A stretch of DNA of 52,033 nt from Desulfuromonadales bacterium (GCA_030613545.1 JAUWLU010000001.1:1-52033), one strand, 5' to 3'; shown: positions 37,560-45,334, counted from the first letter of the stretch. A program made the numbers and translations. Notes: generated from the sequence alone by a model not told the origin.

Positions 37560-37826
37560 TTAGTGTGCGGCGGCGCCCACCACATACTGGGTGAAGGGGT
37601 TGGCGAACAGCAGAATCATGGCCACAACGAAGACGTAGATGGCCAGGGACTCGATCATCGCCAGACCGATCAGCATCGTGGTCAGGATCTTGCCGCTGGC
37701 GCCGGGGTTGCGGGCCACGCCTTCCAGGGCGCTCTTGAGGGCCATCCCCTGGCTGAGGCTGGTAGGAACGACACCGAACGCCATGCCGAATCCGGCGGTA
37801 ATTACGCACCAAGTAAAGTAATCCAT
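37560..37826 (-). CDS. atpE: ATP synthase F0 subunit c
   Basis: ARNP loop, [12 protein letters not shown]. Confidence 0.95.
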
Positions 37827-37904
37827 GTTTGCTACTCCTTTTTAATAATGTGACAACATTGTTGCTCCGGCCCGCTCACGGACCTTCAACATTCCCTGCG
37901 AAAA

Positions 37905-38609
37905 TCAATGGGCTTCTTCCAGGGCACCGGCAAAATAGATCATGGACAGCAAGGTAAAGACAAAGGCCTGGATAAAGGCGACCAATATCCCCATCAACAT
38001 CATCGGGATCGGCACCAACACTGGCGCCAGGGACAGAAAGATCATCAGCACGATCTCATGGCCGTACATATTGCCGAACAGGCGCAATGTGAGGGAGAGG
38101 GGTCTGGCGAGATGGCCGATGATCTCGATGGGCAACATCAAGGGCACCAGCCACCAGATGGGGCCGGTAAATTGTTTAATATAAGACAGGCCGTGTTCTT
38201 TCAGGCCGATGGCGTGGGTCATGACGAACACCGACAGGGCCAAGGCCGCATTGGTGTTGAGGTTGGCGGTCGGCGGCATGAAGCCGGGGACCAGGGCGAT
38301 CAGGTTGGAAACGAGGATGAACAGCGCCAGGGTGGCGATCATCGGAAAGTAGGCCCGCCCTTTGGCACCCATGGTTTCGCCTATGAGCCGCTCGATCTGC
38401 TCGAGCACCACTTCCATGAAGTTCTGCAGCCCCTCGGGGTGTTTCTGCAGACGCCTGGAAGCGAGAAAGCCGGCCAGGATCAGGATCGCCATGGTCGCCC
38501 AGGCATAGGTGACATGGTTGAAATAGCCGTAGTCGGCGAGTTGCTCCGGGGTGTAACCGAATTTCAGTTTTTCAACCAGCCACTGTAAAAACAAAAAGGG
38601 ATGTGTCAT
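37905..38609 (-). CDS. atpB: ATP synthase F0 subunit a
   Basis: [29 protein letters not shown]. Confidence 0.95.
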
Positions 38610-38992
38610 GATATACAAATCCTGCCTTTGATAATTCGTTCCAGGGCCAACCCCATAATGTTTAACACCACAACCGAAAGGCCGACCGCCAAGGCCGGCG
38701 GAGACAGCCGGGCCGGGCCGATCAACAGAAACAGAGCCGCCGCCAGTACCAGCAGTCGCAACAGCACTGTGAACTGGTAGCCCCGCGCCTTTTGCTCTCC
38801 GGCACCTGCCAGCAACTTGGCCAGCGACCAGCGCAGCCAGTAAAAACCACCGATGGAGACCAGTCCACCTGCGGCGACACCGAAAAAGACCGCCTGGGAA
38901 CGCCACAGCAGGCTGGCAACCGTCAGCCCGGCCCACAGTAGCCAGTTGCGCCGGCAGATCTTGGCCGGCAAAAGATCATCAGCTTCCGGCAT
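38606..38992 (-). CDS. atpI: ATP synthase subunit I
   Basis: Four-TM hydrophobic protein immediately upstream of atpB. Confidence 0.75.
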
Positions 38993-39363: not shown

Positions 39364-40329
39364 TCAGGCCAAAAAGAGCTTGACGAAACCGGCGAAGAGT
39401 TGTTCGTCCGGACCGCTCACCACATGTTCTTTCATGAACTTGAGGGCCTCGAAGGACGAACGGCTGTTGTGATAGGGGCGATCGGAGGTCAGGGCCTCGT
39501 AGACATCGGCCAGCCGGCAGATCCGGGCATAGGGATGAATCTCCTCGGCCCCTTTGTTGTGCGGGTAGCCCATGCCGTCGTCCCGTTCGTGGTGCTGGAG
39601 GATGATGGTCCGCGCCTCATCGGTCATCAGGCCGCTGTTTTCGACCATCTGGTAGCCATCGAGGACATGGCGCCGGACGATATCCCGCTCCTCGTCGTTG
39701 AGCAGGCCGGGCTTGTTGAGAATTTCTATGGGAATCTTGCATTTGCCGAGATCGTGCAGGAAAAAGCCGGCTCCCAGGGCCTGCATATCGTGTTGATTGT
39801 CGCCACCAAACAGAATCCGCGCCAGGGCTATGCTGAAGATGCCGACATTGGTTGAATGGACATAGGTACTGTGATCGTAGGTAGTTAGATGGATCAGATG
39901 TTTGGTGGCCTGGTCGTCGGAGATGATGAGATTGACGGTCGGCTCCAGAATTTCGCAGGCCTGTCCAAGAAAGACTGCGCGTGGCTCTTCGAAGGTCCGC
40001 TGCAGGGTCTGCAGACAGGCGGCATGCACCGCTTCGGCCTTTTTATTTGAGGACACCGCCGGATTGCTGACGATGGAGACCAGAGTCTCTTTGAGATAGG
40101 CATTGTAGAGGGCTCTCTCTTCTTCACGAATGTAGAGCAGATCGGCACCACTGGCAATGACCCGATCCCGCGCGGCGCTGTCGAACAGCACCCCCTTTTG
40201 GGCAAAAAAGACGTACTGCCCGTCGTGAATGCGGCGATAGAGATCGCAGGGCGCGGCCCGCTCGAACTGCAGGGTCGCCAGTGCTACTGGCAAAAACTGC
40301 TCATTCATGTGTTCGGTGTGTCCTTCCAC
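39364..40329 (-). CDS. HD-GYP domain c-di-GMP phosphodiesterase
   Basis: HDLGK, HHERDDGMGYP, ADVYEALTSDRPY; start GTG 40329 or ATG 40308. Confidence 0.9.
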   Translation of the reverse strand: MEGHTEHMNEQFLPVALATLQFERAAPCDLYRRIHDGQYVFFAQKGVLFDSAARDRVIASGADLLYIREEERALYNAYLKETLVSIVSNPAVSSNKKAEAVHAACLQTLQRTFEEPRAVFLGQACEILEPTVNLIISDDQATKHLIHLTTYDHSTYVHSTNVGIFSIALARILFGGDNQHDMQALGAGFFLHDLGKCKIPIEILNKPGLLNDEERDIVRRHVLDGYQMVENSGLMTDEARTIILQHHERDDGMGYPHNKGAEEIHPYARICRLADVYEALTSDRPYHNSRSSFEALKFMKEHVVSGPDEQLFAGFVKLFLA

Positions 40330-40480: not shown

Positions 40481-41785
40481 TCAGCTGTTCAGATAGGCCG
40501 TTATGCTGTCGCCAAGGGTCTGGAATATGCGCCTGAATTCCTGTTCATTCCTTTCCAGCAGGGTAATCCGAACACCCTGCTCCATGGTGCAGAAGGACGA
40601 TAGGGGCACCACGCAGATACCGGTCGACGCCAGCAGATAATAGACAAAACGTTTGTCGAGAGCGACCTTCGGCTCGGCCACCAGTTTTTCGACCAGGGTG
40701 CGTACCTCGGTAATCTCGATGGGCAGGCTCTGGCGATCGCTCAGGCGGTCTTTTTTGAACACCACGCTCATGTAGAAAGCGCCGTTGGTGCGATTGACCT
40801 TGATGCCGGGAACCCCCTGCAGCATTTCGACGGCAATATTGGAAAACTTTTCGTAGCGATCCTTGCGTTCTTTCAGATAGACCGGATACTGGGGATGACT
40901 TAGCAGTCGCGGAATGGCCTTTTGCGGCAGAGTGGTGGAACAGACCTCGACCATCTTGGCATCGAGGATGCTCTTCACATACTGCTTGAACACCGGGTCC
41001 GTGTCGGCATTGTAAACCTCCATCCAACCGCAGCGGGCGCCGGGCCAAGGCACTTCCTTGCTGATGCCTTTGAGTGCCAGAGCCGGTACCTCGCCTATGA
41101 TGTCGGAGATCGGTTTGGTCGATGCGCCGTTATAGACAATATTGTGATAGACCTCATCGCAGATAATGAACAGGTCGTATTCGCGGGCAATGGCGATCAT
41201 CTCCTGCAGAATGCGCTCCGGATAGACCGCACCGGTGGGATTGTCCGGGTTGATGATGAGAATGCCGGAGATGCTCGGGTTGTATTTGACCGACAGGCGC
41301 AGATCATCCAGGTCGGGATACCAGTTGTTGTCCGGATCGAGACGGTAAGAGATCGGCTTGGTCCCGGCATGAGCGGCTTCAGCGGAGGAGTGGGTCGAGT
41401 AGGTGGGGGTGGGACCGATGATTCGCGCTTCGCGACGAAGAAAACCGTAGACCTTCTGAATCGCGTCGCCGAGACCGTTGAAAAACATGATGTCGTCGGC
41501 CGTAATCTGGGTCTTGCCCCGCCGGTTGGTCTGTTCGGCCAGAAACTGGCGGGTTTCCAGCACGCCGCGGGTCGGGCAATAACCGTAGGAACAATCCTGC
41601 ATGACCAGGTCGGCAACGATCTCCTTCATCCATTGAGGAATTTTTTCTCCCTTGGCAATGGGATCGCCGATATTCTCCATGTTGGTCTTGATGCCCATCT
41701 GCTGCAGCTTGTCGGCAATCTCGACGATGGCGCGAATTTCATAGACCAGTTCTCCGGCCCCGATATGAACGATATTGTTGCGCAT
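40481..41785 (-). CDS. PLP-dependent class I aminotransferase, alanine aminotransferase (AlaA/AlaAT)-like
   Basis: N-terminal YEIR..NIGDP as in AlaA/AlaAT, INPDNPTG, DEVY, SK...PGARCGW (PLP lysine). Confidence 0.8.
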   Translation of the reverse strand: MRNNIVHIGAGELVYEIRAIVEIADKLQQMGIKTNMENIGDPIAKGEKIPQWMKEIVADLVMQDCSYGYCPTRGVLETRQFLAEQTNRRGKTQITADDIMFFNGLGDAIQKVYGFLRREARIIGPTPTYSTHSSAEAAHAGTKPISYRLDPDNNWYPDLDDLRLSVKYNPSISGILIINPDNPTGAVYPERILQEMIAIAREYDLFIICDEVYHNIVYNGASTKPISDIIGEVPALALKGISKEVPWPGARCGWMEVYNADTDPVFKQYVKSILDAKMVEVCSTTLPQKAIPRLLSHPQYPVYLKERKDRYEKFSNIAVEMLQGVPGIKVNRTNGAFYMSVVFKKDRLSDRQSLPIEITEVRTLVEKLVAEPKVALDKRFVYYLLASTGICVVPLSSFCTMEQGVRITLLERNEQEFRRIFQTLGDSITAYLNS

Positions 41786-41841
41786 CCTTCCCTATCTCCC
41801 CCTGGTAACGGACCTGCCCGCGACGGCGAGTCAGCGCTCCG

Positions 41842-41880
41842 AAACGAAAAAGACCACGAGCTCAACACGCCCATGGCCTT
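41842..41880 (-). terminator. attenuator terminator in the aminotransferase leader
   Basis: AAGGCCAUGGGC-gugUUga-GCUCGUGGUCUU-UUUCGUUU; 12 bp with 3 G-U pairs that work only on the minus strand. Confidence 0.85.
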
Positions 41881-41905
41881 ACTGACTGTTTATCGGTACC
41901 GGGTA

Positions 41906-42001
41906 TCAGGCAGCAAGACGATGGACAGCGCCGAACCTGGCTGCTGCTTTCATGCCGCGCGCTGCTGCCGAGCGACGATATCCCTGCCTGTTGATAACCA
42001 T
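41906..42001 (-). CDS. Ala-rich leader peptide, 31 aa: MVINRQGYRRSAAARGMKAAARFGAVHRLAA
   Basis: GAGGAGG SD 5 nt before ATG; 9/31 Ala codons including two runs of three; overlaps the antiterminator strand. Confidence 0.8.
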   Translation of the reverse strand: MVINRQGYRRSAAARGMKAAARFGAVHRLAA

Positions 42002-42147
42002 TCGGTCCTCCTCGGTATCTGCTCGTGTCTGGGTAGCATAGCCCCCGAACAAAGTCAATCCTCTTGTCGTGGCAAAAGGATTTATTCCACTGGCTCAATC
42101 ATGCTATAAAACAACTACTTTCACTTTTAAGGAGTACGCATATTTCC

Positions 42148-44550
42148 ATGTCCCTTACCAAGTTTTTGCGCATACTGCTGCTGACTGCGGGCGGGCTGCT
42201 GGTTACCATGGCTCTCTGCCTGCTCGGCGCCTACCTGTACGTATCGGCCCGGCTGCCCAAGGTCGACACCCTGGCCGATTACCGGCCGCCGGTCATCACC
42301 CGTATTCTCGGCGACGACGGCTCGCTGATCGCTGAGCTGTACCGCGAGCGACGGATCCTGGTCCCGGTCTCGGCCATGCCCCGTCAGCTGATCGAAGCCT
42401 TTGTCGCTGCCGAAGACTCCAAATTTTTTCACCATCAGGGCCTGGATCTGGGCTCCATAGCTCGGGCGGCGCTGAAAAATCTTCGCGCCGGCGGTATCGT
42501 TCAGGGCGGATCGACCATCACTCAACAGGTCGCCAAGAGCCTGCTGCTGACGCCGGAGCGCAAGTTTTCCCGCAAATTCAAAGAAGCGATCCTGGCCTGG
42601 CGCATGGAACAGCACCTGACCAAGGAAGAGATTCTCTACCTCTATCTCAACCAGATATATCTCGGTCACGGCGCCTACGGGGTTCAGGCGGCGGCGGAGA
42701 ACTATTTTGCCAAAAATGTCGAGGACCTGACCTTGGCGGAATGCGCCATACTGGCCGGCCTGCCCCAGGCCCCGAGCCGCTATTCGCCCTATCGCCACCT
42801 AAAACGGGCCAAGGACCGCCAGCGTTATGTGCTGGAGAGAATGGCGCATGAGGGCTACATTCCCGCCGAAGCCGCCGCCCAGGCCCTGACCGAAGAACTG
42901 GTCATCCACCCGCGGAGCAAACCGCAGGTGCCCGGCGCCGCGTATTTCACCGAGCAGGTCCGCCGTTACCTGGAACAGACATTCGGCAGCGAACAGACCC
43001 TGACCGGCGGCCTGGAGGTTCACACCACCATGAACCTCGCCATGCAGCAGGCCGCTCAACAGGCGGTGCGGCATAATCTGCGTAACCACGATCGACGCCA
43101 GGGCTATCGCGGTCCGTTGCGGACCCTGAGTAAGGATCAACAGGAACTCTTTCTCACCGAGCAGGCTGTCGCCTGGCCCGAGGCGCCACCCGTCGGCGAA
43201 CGTCTTGAAGGGCTTCTGATCAAAGGAGGCAAGCAGGATCTGGTGGTGCGAATCGGTTCTTTCACCGGCCTCATCCCCCGCAAGGACATCGCCTGGGCCG
43301 GCAATCTTCAGGTGCTGGCCCAGGGCCAACCGGTCAAGGTCGATAGCGATAAGAAGCTGGTTAAGCTACCCGTTGGATCGGTATTGCTGGTCGAGGTCGT
43401 GCAGCCCTTGACCAACGGCAAGCTCGGCCTGGCTCTCGCCCAGGAACCCGAAGCGCAGGCTGCCCTGGTCGCCCTCGACCCCCGCTCCGGCGAGGTCAAA
43501 GCCATGGTCGGTGGCTACGACTTCAGTCAGAGCCAGTTCAATCGGGCCATTCAGGCCAAACGCCTGCCCGGCTCGGCCTTTAAGCCGCTGATCTATGCTG
43601 CAGCCCTCGACAAGGGCTACACCCCGGCAACGATTGTTCTCGATACCCCCCTCATCTATCGGGAAAAGGGTGAGCAGGGACAAGTGAAGGAATGGAAACC
43701 GAAAAATTACCGGGGATCCTTTTCCGGACCGACCTCTCTGCGCCGAGCCCTGGCCCGCTCCTACAATGTGGTCACCATCAAGATTCTGCAGGATATCGGG
43801 GTCCGTTACGCCATCGGCTATGCCAGCAAACTGGGCATCGAATCGCCGCTCACCGCCGATTTGACCCTGGCCCTCGGTTCTTCTGCCATCTCGCCCCTGG
43901 AGCTGGCGACGGCCTACAGCGTCTTCGCCAATGGCGGGGTTCGTTTCACCCCCAACTACATCTCTCGCGTGGTCGATCGCCACGGGCGGGTACTGGAATC
44001 GGTCGATCCGGCCGACTTTCCCGAGGGGCCGGCCGACCAACAGCAGTTGATTCGCAATCCCACCGAACGGGTGATTTCACCGGAGACCGCCTATCTGATC
44101 ACCAACCTGATGGAGAGCGTGGTGCAAAACGGCACCGGTTTTCGAGCCAAGGCCCTGGGCCGGCCGGCGGCCGGCAAGACCGGCACTACCAACGATCAGA
44201 AGGATGCCTGGTTCGCCGGTTACGTGCCTCAACTAATCGCCGTCTCCTGGACCGGCTATGACCAGGAGCGCTCCCTGGGCAAAAATGAGACTGGCTCGCG
44301 AGCGGCGGCGCCGGCCTGGGTAGAGTTCATGAAACAATCGCTCAAAGGTGTACCCCGCCAACATTTTCCCGTTCCGGACGCTATCGAGTTTCGTCCCATC
44401 GATCCGGAAACCGGGCTGCTGGCCCCCGAGGACGGTTCGGAAGTGATTTTCGAAGCCTTCGCCTCCGGCACTGCACCGACCCGCTATGCCCTGGAACGCA
44501 AACAGCCGAAGGCTCAAGATTTCTTCAAGCTTGATCTGGAAGATATCTGA
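42148..44550 (+). CDS. mrcA: penicillin-binding protein 1A
   Basis: AEDSKF, QGGSTITQQVAK, RKFKE (transglycosylase); SAFK, SYN, KTGTT (transpeptidase). Confidence 0.93.
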   Translation: MSLTKFLRILLLTAGGLLVTMALCLLGAYLYVSARLPKVDTLADYRPPVITRILGDDGSLIAELYRERRILVPVSAMPRQLIEAFVAAEDSKFFHHQGLDLGSIARAALKNLRAGGIVQGGSTITQQVAKSLLLTPERKFSRKFKEAILAWRMEQHLTKEEILYLYLNQIYLGHGAYGVQAAAENYFAKNVEDLTLAECAILAGLPQAPSRYSPYRHLKRAKDRQRYVLERMAHEGYIPAEAAAQALTEELVIHPRSKPQVPGAAYFTEQVRRYLEQTFGSEQTLTGGLEVHTTMNLAMQQAAQQAVRHNLRNHDRRQGYRGPLRTLSKDQQELFLTEQAVAWPEAPPVGERLEGLLIKGGKQDLVVRIGSFTGLIPRKDIAWAGNLQVLAQGQPVKVDSDKKLVKLPVGSVLLVEVVQPLTNGKLGLALAQEPEAQAALVALDPRSGEVKAMVGGYDFSQSQFNRAIQAKRLPGSAFKPLIYAAALDKGYTPATIVLDTPLIYREKGEQGQVKEWKPKNYRGSFSGPTSLRRALARSYNVVTIKILQDIGVRYAIGYASKLGIESPLTADLTLALGSSAISPLELATAYSVFANGGVRFTPNYISRVVDRHGRVLESVDPADFPEGPADQQQLIRNPTERVISPETAYLITNLMESVVQNGTGFRAKALGRPAAGKTGTTNDQKDAWFAGYVPQLIAVSWTGYDQERSLGKNETGSRAAAPAWVEFMKQSLKGVPRQHFPVPDAIEFRPIDPETGLLAPEDGSEVIFEAFASGTAPTRYALERKQPKAQDFFKLDLEDI

Positions 44551-44666: not shown

Positions 44667-44686
44667 CCGTTTCCGGACGGAAACTA
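44667..44686. repeat. solo REP-like terminus of the 1-145 element family
   Basis: CCGTTTCCGGACGGAAACTA vs CCGTTTCCGGATGGAAACTA at 126-145 (19/20). Confidence 0.75.
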
Positions 44687-45334
44687 ATTGGCTCGATCGA
44701 CGCCCCTTTGCGGACAATCCTTCAACAACGGGCATTGGGAACAAAGGGGAATCGGGGCCTTGCAGAGTTGGCGGCCATGGAGTATCAGCAGATGGGCAGC
44801 CTGCACCCAATGCTTGCGGGGCAACAGTTGACAGAGATCCCCTTCGATCTTTTCCGGATCCTGCTGATCGGTCCAGGCAAAGCGCCGGGACAGACGCTTG
44901 ACGTGGGTATCGACCACCATACCGGGGATACCGAAGGCATTGCCAAGCACCACATTGGCCGTTTTGCGCCCGACACCGGGCAGCCGGACCAATTCTGCGA
45001 GGGTTTGCGGTACCTGACCGTCGTGTTCGCGCAGCAGCATTTGGGCGCAGCCGAGCAGGCTCTTGGCCTTGTTGCGATAAAATCCCGTCGAGCGAATATC
45101 CTTTTCCAGAGTTTGCAGGTCCGCCTCGGCCAGGGCTTGCACACGGGGATATTTAACGAACAATTCTACGGTGACCTTATTAACCTGCACATCGGTACAC
45201 TGGGCGGAGAGAATGGTCGCAATCAACAGCTGAAAGGGATTATCGTAGCGTAGGGCGCAGTGGGCATCGGGGTAGAGTTGATACAGCTGGTCGAGAATCC
45301 TGGCGGCTTTTTTGCGCATTCGGTGGTCTGCCAT
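44684..45334 (-). CDS. nth: endonuclease III
   Basis: LSAQCTD, LPGVGRKTANVVL (HhH), VDTHV, C-x6-C-x2-C-x5-C. Confidence 0.96.
   Translation of the reverse strand: MADHRMRKKAARILDQLYQLYPDAHCALRYDNPFQLLIATILSAQCTDVQVNKVTVELFVKYPRVQALAEADLQTLEKDIRSTGFYRNKAKSLLGCAQMLLREHDGQVPQTLAELVRLPGVGRKTANVVLGNAFGIPGMVVDTHVKRLSRRFAWTDQQDPEKIEGDLCQLLPRKHWVQAAHLLILHGRQLCKAPIPLCSQCPLLKDCPQRGVDRAN

Follow-up and report, generated by a model that had tools for sequence, protein, structure and literature searches.

The classical leader-peptide attenuators (trpL, hisL, leuL, thrL, pheL, ilvL and ivbL) combine a short ORF rich in codons for the cognate amino acid, a segment 2 within the end of this ORF, mutually exclusive 2:3 and 3:4 helices, and a U tract, with termination as the default when no ribosome is present. 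The leader described here is predicted to share these features. To our knowledge, alanine is missing from the textbook list of attenuator amino acids. The ivbL leader of E. coli also responds to alanine in vitro. Leaders that read alanine are, however, already in print.

AlaL from S. lividans is a 22-codon, Ala-rich leader that precedes alaS and is a predicted attenuator (Droste et al. 2021, PMC8079986, Table 4). Its T-A-R-A-T-S matches the core of the leaders described below (e.g., L036, L102 and L106), but this short codon motif is all that is shared, and AlaL differs in preceding an alanyl-tRNA synthetase gene, in belonging to Actinomycetota and in having been predicted from RNA-seq only. 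The mycobacterial whiB7 "Ala leader" is an attenuator with an Ala-rich uORF. Upon alanine starvation, levels of the alanine aminotransferase AspC increase in a WhiB7-dependent manner, which is experimentally supported (Poulton et al., PMC10274678; preprint 10.1101/2025.10.10.681568 is related to this work). It resembles our leader in its Ala-rich uORF, its terminator and antiterminator, and in having an alanine aminotransferase as its end target. In contrast, it is longer, acts via a transcription factor and senses many amino acids and antibiotics, while the leader found here sits directly before the enzyme gene.

The first-pass annotation of the DNA analyzed here had proposed that this leader may represent a new specificity class. 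Because AlaL and whiB7 already read alanine, this is overstated. What stands is that the literature searched, in which subscription papers were mostly outside reach, yielded neither an Ala leader placed directly upstream of an alanine transaminase gene nor one from Geobacter-like bacteria. Word look-ups in the accessible parts of PMC3543383 (text and supplements), PMC2965389 (text) and PMC11109978 (text; Narunsky et al. 2024, who screened a Geobacter genome) returned no Ala leader before an alanine transaminase or in the class. Two points look new as judged from sequence comparison: a predicted leaderless version of the leader in the other order of the class, and a CGA-GCN codon pair that recurs before alaS of Streptomyces. 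Compared to the classical attenuators, our leader also differs in its Ala specificity, its single aminotransferase target, its occurrence in Desulfobacterota, the lack of a match to an Rfam leader family and a poorly conserved protector helix.

The window, i.e., the whole stretch of DNA that was analyzed, comprises 52,033 nt from a Desulfuromonadales bacterium. All features of the locus are on its minus strand:

42030..42058, minus strand: predicted sigma70-type promoter, with TTGACT at 42058-42053, a 17-nt spacer with TG extension and a -10-like TACCCA at 42035-42030
42007..42013, minus strand: Shine-Dalgarno (SD) sequence GAGGAGG of the leader ORF, read from the sequence
41906..42001, minus strand: leader ORF with 31 codons, nine of them for Ala, read from the sequence, with an Ala-enriched counterpart called by rule at 98 of the 110 orthologous loci
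41939..41968, minus strand: control region, consisting of Ala12-14, Arg15-Gly16 (CGC GGC) and Ala19-21; the consensus of the orthologous leaders at 15-16 is CGA GCT/GCG
41911..41926, minus strand: segment 2, the 5' strand of the predicted antiterminator, located within the leader ORF and pairing with segment 3 (covariation)
41869..41884, minus strand: segment 3, common to the predicted antiterminator and terminator (folding and alignment)
41842..41880, minus strand: intrinsic-terminator-like hairpin (41880-41850, 12 pairs) with U tract (sequence and covariation)
40481..41785, minus strand: PLP-dependent class I aminotransferase, AlaA/PfAlaAT-like (NCBIfam PRK06855), the predicted regulated gene

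The SD sequence and the 31-codon ORF with its nine Ala codons are located where the first-pass annotation had placed them. The Ala codons include two runs (codons 12-14, GCA GCA GCG; codons 19-21, GCA GCA GCC), and segment 2 begins 12 nt past Ala21. As had been noted before, 15 of 16 positions pair between 41926-41911 and 41884-41869, with one C.C mismatch. This 2:3 helix is present in the minimum free energy structure (MFE) of 41860-41940, with a z-score of -3.93 that is reached by none of 200 shuffles. The terminator-like hairpin lies ca. 57 nt upstream of the aminotransferase ATG (41785), close to the 55 nt given initially. At least nine Ala in a 30-residue stretch are found in only 109 of 17069 such stretches from the long ORFs of the genome. 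When this genome was scanned, 231 terminator-like sites upstream of genes yielded 380 candidate uORFs. Three passed the enrichment filter, and the aminotransferase leader is the sole one for Ala.

Transcription is predicted to start at about 42022, downstream of the TTGACT/TACCCA promoter candidate. A consensus promoter scan of the window missed TTGACT-17-TACCCA, which is too divergent from the consensus; the pattern TTGAC-17-TGnTA is found at the equivalent place in nearly all orthologous leaders. The -10-like hexamer usually lacks the final T in the window and its orthologs (TACCCA, TAACCA, TATTCG); TTGAC and the TG extension, in contrast, show strong conservation. One RNA run gave five short contig pieces; the piece 41663-41853 ends in adapter and is uninformative on termination. 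The upstream region of a divergent PBP1A-family gene (TIGR02074, 42148-44550, plus strand) adjoins the leader promoter, a pairing which is kept in close relatives only. Other genes nearby code for an HD-domain protein (39364-40329, minus strand, downstream of the aminotransferase gene), ATP synthase F0-like proteins (37560-38992, minus strand, labeled by reading of the sequence) and endonuclease III (44684-45334, minus strand).

Upstream DNA was obtained for 110 orthologs, namely those from the 30 best relatives, from 40 of 60 genomes of the other order, and from 40 further genomes of the same order. The named relatives of the window are Desulfuromonadales and Syntrophotalea records; the other order of the class is presumably Geobacterales, for which a 62% match to Trichlorobacter speaks. 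Leaders were called by a rule that uses a terminator pattern, the promoter and whichever ORF with an SD or a leaderless start comes first, and that ignores amino acid content. The terminator pattern was drawn from the same leader sequences, so that the rule takes no account of amino acids but does depend on the terminator motif. A composition-blind terminator finder was dropped as it often chose the Ala-run hairpin or upstream terminators.

By this rule, a leader ORF with terminator is found at 98 of the 110 loci, in 28 families. L049 and L050 also carry the leader even though they are missed by the pattern, so that the leader, for which a survey of orthologs had been proposed, is conserved at 100 of 110 loci of the class. 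The leader is absent from the other ten, which belong to f23 (six of seven loci: L077, L080, L083, L087, L088, L097), f26 (three: L059, L065, L066) and f29 (the single locus L057). At several f23 loci, the promoter is directly before the aminotransferase gene, which looks like a deletion of the attenuator.

In the 98 leaders, Ala accounts for 898 of 2906 codons (31%), a threefold enrichment over the proteome (10%); in the +1 frame its share is only 7%, and in the +2 frame 4%. The ORF frame is richer in Ala than both other frames in 98 of 98 leaders, 96 of which have Ala as their most frequent residue. Arg is increased 1.5-fold and Cys 2-fold, while Leu, Glu, Asp, Trp and Gln are decreased 2- to 4-fold. 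Upstream of the switch point are 683 of the 898 Ala codons. The orthologous leaders have a core with the consensus A-A-R-A-x-x-A-A-A, which is located 5-22 codons from the start. For the core Ala codons, the first two bases are kept in 61-75 of 77 aligned sequences; the third base is free, and all four Ala codons are used. This third-base variation with retention of the first two bases, together with the frame specificity, argues for selection on alanine and not on a GC-rich hairpin. GCA and GCG make up 63% of the leader Ala codons, compared to 29% genome-wide. Such a non-random use of synonymous codons is a further likeness to the classical attenuators, for which bias of this kind is known, as in the general model of Elf and Ehrenberg (2005, PMC1183508).

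Genomes were searched with a covariance model of the leader family, and matches with E<1e-7 were considered strong. These are found in 81 of 101 genomes and are missing in eight of nine f23 genomes and 11 of 28 f26 genomes. Fourteen matches are in genomes from which upstream DNA had not been sampled before, and all 14 are located 15-238 nt from the ortholog. A second copy of the leader at another gene was not found among 12 of the weaker matches, none of which is an Ala leader; they are mostly 3'-end terminators, with one tRNA and two aromatic leaders. No Ala-rich uORF precedes the alanine dehydrogenase gene in the 12 genomes that were read, and none was seen by eye before alaS in the genome of the window.

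Outside of the class, the PRK06855 family occurs in 23 of 151 genomes of the phylum, and four of 18 non-class loci have the leader. A Deferrisomatales record carries it, while Desulfobulbia records keep the promoter without the leader. Among 80 metagenomic loci, 73 have enough upstream DNA and six have a convincing Ala leader, five from the same leader family and L241. The latter, from a metagenome contig, has a 29-codon leader with seven consecutive Ala codons upstream of a PRK06855-like gene (52% identity), lacks the CGA pair and is of a different design. Four loci (L215, L267, L287, L307) represent a more distant lineage with an enzyme of 60-66% identity; they have an identical core and a different terminator sequence. 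In one genus of f27 (L032-L035, L037, L039, L043), a single run of four to five Ala codons is found, CGT GGC replaces CGA GCN, and the stop position shifts between species. Repeat-like insertions of 100-200 nt separate the terminator from the gene start at L010, L024 and L217.

The RNA structures were evaluated in an alignment made by sequence alone, with 77 leaders remaining from the 98 after removal of near-duplicates (86 left) and of nine close copies dropped by eye. The RNAalifold consensus is the terminator, with compensatory changes at eight of ten pairs. For the 2:3 antiterminator, 78.0% of cells are paired, compared to 74.7 +/- 0.7 in shuffles, a value reached by none of 500; slid controls give 31-52%. 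Double changes number 53, compared to 34 in shuffles. Both helices thus show the covariation that the first-pass annotation had proposed as a check, although the 2:3/3:4 structure was derived from the same sequences that were used for this test. Segments 2, 3 and 4 co-vary (U-A-U in 34 of 77, C-G-C in 21 of 77), but the strongest covarying column mostly tracks the split between the two orders, so that few independent events are represented. In 86 of 98 leaders, pairing of segment 3 is better with the segment-2 window where its partner is expected than with a control window upstream; the expected window also outperforms the spacer in 91 leaders, and the own partner outperforms that of the other order in 71. 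The energy of the 2:3 helix in individual sequences barely beats that of dinucleotide shuffles (mean z -0.66; p<=0.05 in 14 of 98). The position of the partner of segment 3 is more telling than the strength of the pairing.

Folding of the window leader under a ribosome mask, keeping the U tract inside the polymerase, gives the classical three-state behavior in this model. The 3:4 terminator has a probability of 0.97-1.0 without a ribosome, of 0.00-0.01 with the A site at codons 9-19, of 0.59-0.72 at codons 20-21, and of 0.99-1.0 from codon 22 onwards. The 2:3 helix has a probability of 0.99-1.0 with the ribosome at codons 9-19. Read-through is thus predicted only for this range and termination from codon 22. 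A stall on either Ala run had been proposed to leave segment 2 free; in the equilibrium model this holds for Ala12-14 and Ala19, which would be the effective stall codons, but Ala20-21 are borderline. Across the 98 leaders, RNA without a ribosome terminates in the equilibrium model in 96; a full three-state switch at equilibrium is seen in 33, and the terminator probability ever drops below 0.5 in 39. In co-transcriptional folding, the mean pairing of segment 3 declines only from 0.76 at the Ala run to 0.46 at the stop. Leaders without an equilibrium switch would need kinetic (co-transcriptional) capture.

The proposed protector helix 1:2 fared less well. The pairing of GGCAGCAG (Ala12-13) with UUGCUGCC is in the MFE of 41900-41985, but it is a minor register, having a pair probability of 0.03-0.06 when folding begins at the predicted transcription start and 0.19-0.59 when it begins at the ATG; segment 2 is instead sequestered through different pairings. 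The alignment gave no clear support for a conserved 1:2 register, since 22-99 of 500 shuffles reach its covariation. The Rfam covariance models (His, Thr, Leu, Trp and Phe leaders, T-box and riboswitches) have no match with E<=1 in positions 41500-42500 of the window. In 12 typical loci, there are three sub-threshold, unrelated matches and none at gathering score, so that no known leader family was matched in either set.

We consider it probable that the leader is a classical ribosome-mediated transcription attenuator that senses Ala-tRNA, a prediction from sequence, comparison and folding. This function is likely because the Ala-rich ORF overlaps one strand of a helix that excludes the downstream terminator. 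RNA polymerase would start at about 42022, and a ribosome would load onto the leader ORF. With ample Ala-tRNA, the ribosome would pass codon 22 and cover segment 2, so that 3:4 forms and transcription ends ca. 57 nt before the gene; RNA without a ribosome on the leader would terminate, too. When Ala-tRNA is scarce, the ribosome would wait at Ala12-14 or Ala19, and segment 2 would capture segment 3 before segment 4 is made. Once 2:3 has formed, read-through would allow transcription of the aminotransferase gene and restore the alanine supply. In most relatives, a slow CGA codon ahead of an Ala codon may tune the stall. The ORF, its in-frame Ala enrichment and the two exclusive helices recur throughout the class in the sequences compared; termination in cells, alanine as the signal and the reaction of the enzyme are what these features suggest. 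The leader has the computable features that define an attenuator, judged by comparison and modeling, except for a conserved protector. The mechanism proposed in the first-pass annotation, attenuation of an AlaA-like gene by ribosomes at Ala codons, is thus strongly backed by conservation, frame selection, covariation of 2:3 and 3:4, and masked folding, while its specific 1:2 helix is not clearly conserved. If this is true, alanine synthesis is under the control of a leader-peptide attenuator in a whole class, to which the electroactive Geobacter and Desulfuromonas groups belong.

The regulated gene codes for a 434-aa protein that scores 754.6 bits against PRK06855 (cut-off 443), a family with a generic name, and misses the cut-off of PRK08363 (189 vs 534 bits). 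By sequence, the solved structures closest to it are those of AlaA from E. coli (4cvq) and AlaAT from P. furiosus (1xi9), with 25-26% identity. A structure model (pLDDT 82.9) also has these as its best PDB matches (4cvq: Z 40.8, rmsd 2.8 Å over 393 residues; 1xi9: Z 41.7, rmsd 2.4 Å over 387 residues). Tyrosine aminotransferases are next by fold (Z 39.9 vs 41.7, within 2 Z units). For AlaA, a steric filter for alanine (Tyr15, Ile17, Ile40 and residue 276) and binding residues (Arg18, Gly41, Tyr129, Asn179, Asp207, Tyr210 and Arg378) have been described (PMC4094517). The counterparts of the plug and pocket by alignment are Y15, I17, R18, I39, G40, Y129, N182, D210, Y213 and V281; these and K243 are invariant in 51 of 51 homologs. 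V281, the counterpart of residue 276, is aliphatic, as the AlaA/PfAlaAT signature requires, and R406 in an invariant column probably corresponds to AlaA Arg378. The AlaA/AlaAT signatures attributed to this enzyme on first inspection are thus borne out by sequence and model. With AlaA and PfAlaAT it has the fold, the YxIR plug, IG, Y129 and the N-D-Y-K cofactor residues in common. It differs by belonging to a separate family, known here from sequence and model, by a C-terminal insertion of ca. 25 residues, and by the absence of the Gly19-Pro20 anchor that follows the plug in AlaA (Ala19-Ile20 in the alignment).

The aminotransferase gene is present in 121 of 121 genomes of the class, with a single match each, and in 40 of 41 relatives. 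Alanine dehydrogenase (Ald) was found in 60 of 101 genomes; the genome of the window has none, nor do the 40 others. AlaC was found in none of the 101 genomes. Seven other class I/II aminotransferases of the window genome that were scanned belong to other families or are below every cut-off; separate AspAT-like, DapL and PatB enzymes are encoded. Because of its AlaA-like features, the ubiquity of its gene, the absence of Ald and AlaC from the genome and the assignment of the other aminotransferases elsewhere, the PRK06855 enzyme is the best candidate for the housekeeping alanine source in the window genome. It would make alanine from pyruvate and glutamate, which would close the feedback loop. 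The leader also gives an uncharacterized family a testable function. JGI names for the family are split between "alanine-synthesizing transaminase" and "aspartate/methionine/tyrosine aminotransferase". PRK06855 also matches in Methanocaldococcus jannaschii (presumably MJ1479), and other members are labeled Thermoleophilia, Treponemataceae and Peregrinibacteria, which makes this a wide family of uncharacterized function; a literature search on "MJ1479" returned no paper.

An in-frame CGA-GCN pair is present in 74 of 98 leaders from 25 of 28 families, while it is expected in 1.8% of random 30-codon stretches. Arg at the core position is encoded by CGA in 74 of 88 cases, compared to a genome use of 8.6%. 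The commonest context, GCA/GCG CGA GCT ATN, is found in 24 of the 74 leaders with the pair. The third-base A often survives loss of the Arg (GAA, CAA, AAA, ATA), and Arg often survives loss of the A. The window copy has CGC-GGC where its relatives have CGA-GCN and is, for this reason, an atypical family member. The pair may sensitize its context, set a pause for timing or contribute to a helix.

The same codons were encountered before alaS in actinomycetes. Five alaS loci were read, four of them distinct; at two of these, a short ORF preceded by an SD contains GCG CGA GCT ATC, with only two Ala codons near its end. In Streptomyces plasmids (L312/L316 and L313), this ORF lies ca. 130-84 nt upstream of a plasmid-borne alaS, of a type found on five plasmid records; it is absent at L314 and L315. 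The covariance model of the leader family does not match these alaS leaders, so that they and the aminotransferase leaders share only the codon string. CGA is slowly read in a Salmonella his-leader assay (PMC4046918). It is tempting to speculate that GCN-CGA-GCU-AUN (Ala-Arg-Ala-Ile/Thr) is a portable cross-phylum alanine sensor, in which a slowly read CGA in the P site renders the following Ala codon exceptionally sensitive to uncharged tRNA-Ala and which is used with different RNA switches before the Desulfuromonadia transaminase and Streptomyces alaS, while lineages without the pair, including the genus of the window, use plain Ala runs. We regard this as a tentative proposal with somewhat less than an even chance of being correct. 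If true, a leader with only two Ala codons could still gauge alanine. Owing to the 12-nt match, the Salmonella his-leader assay could directly test how codon context sharpens the sensing of an amino acid as common as alanine.

In the other order, the leader is predicted from its sequence to be translated leaderlessly. In 33 of 34 leaders, 36-39 nt separate the beginning of TTGAC from the ATG, a spacing that the leader rule favored, although only one of 63 leaders from the same order as the window is in that range. An SD of at least 4 nt is found in only seven of 34, compared to 54 of 64 in the order of the window. The loci with an ATG 36-39 nt past the -35 hexamer are among L031-L070. In a leaderless version, coupling between the ribosome and RNA polymerase has to begin at the very first nucleotide. 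SD-led and predicted leaderless versions, versions with and without the CGA-GCN pair, and lineages without a leader are natural experiments within this leader family.

Other explanations of the leader were considered. It might be a general translation-stress attenuator of the whiB7/bmrB type, in which any slowing of the ribosome (by antibiotics, any starvation or the slow CGA) opens the gene and Ala codons only bias the response. Folding gives read-through with the ribosome at any of codons 9-19 and not at Ala alone, the whiB7 uORF reads many amino acids even though it is Ala-rich (PMC10274678), and the slow reading of CGA in the his-leader assay (PMC4046918) would fit. We nevertheless consider this unlikely, since Ala is threefold enriched, in runs right before the switch, while Leu, Glu, Asp, Trp and Gln are 2- to 4-fold depleted, and since the gene under control codes for one metabolic enzyme with features of an alanine transaminase, and is neither a resistance gene nor one for a regulator. 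It is quite unlikely that GCN-CGA-GCU-AU acts as RNA and not through its codons (by binding AlaRS or uncharged tRNA-Ala, in a T-box-like manner, or as protector only), with the ORF being secondary. Conservation has a three-base periodicity, the frame is kept in 98 of 98 leaders, in which the core is located 5-22 codons from the start, neither a T-box nor any other Rfam family reaches the gathering score in the window or in 12 typical loci, and the genus of the window lacks the element yet retains ORF and switch. This is set against the preference for CGA (74 of 88 Arg codons vs 8.6% genome use), the frequent retention of the third-base A after loss of Arg (GAA, CAA, AAA, ATA) and the identical 12 nt before Streptomyces alaS.

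The leader could also sense alanine while the enzyme has a different main role, as a broad or aromatic aminotransferase or in nitrogen shuttling. Sequence identity to the alanine enzymes is only 25-26%, tyrosine aminotransferases are nearly tied by fold, aminotransferases are promiscuous (PMC4094517), and the family labels are generic, with split JGI names. Yet Tyr15 of the plug, the steric selector of alanine in AlaA (PMC4094517), is invariant, and the genome has separate AspAT-like, DapL and PatB enzymes but neither Ald nor AlaC, which makes a different main role very unlikely. That a GC-rich hairpin region merely happens to be in a GCN frame beside an ordinary terminator is scarcely credible: GCN repeats pair readily and the energy tests of individual sequences are weak, but conservation in 28 families with frame selection and covariation contradicts chance, and the terminator is placed between promoter and gene. 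Attenuation by Ala-tRNA thus remains the preferred reading.

A second leader was encountered in the same order. In genomes G113 and G111 of family f23, a 29-codon leader (L227:393-482, plus strand, and L228) with eight Phe, one Tyr and one Trp is followed by hairpins and a U tract. It is located upstream of an ORF that is DAHP-synthase-like (labeled by reading) and is likely, as judged from its sequence, an attenuator for aromatic amino acids. The DAHP-synthase-like ortholog in the window genome is on contig C81, which ends 202 nt before the gene, and has a similar upstream hairpin with U tract.
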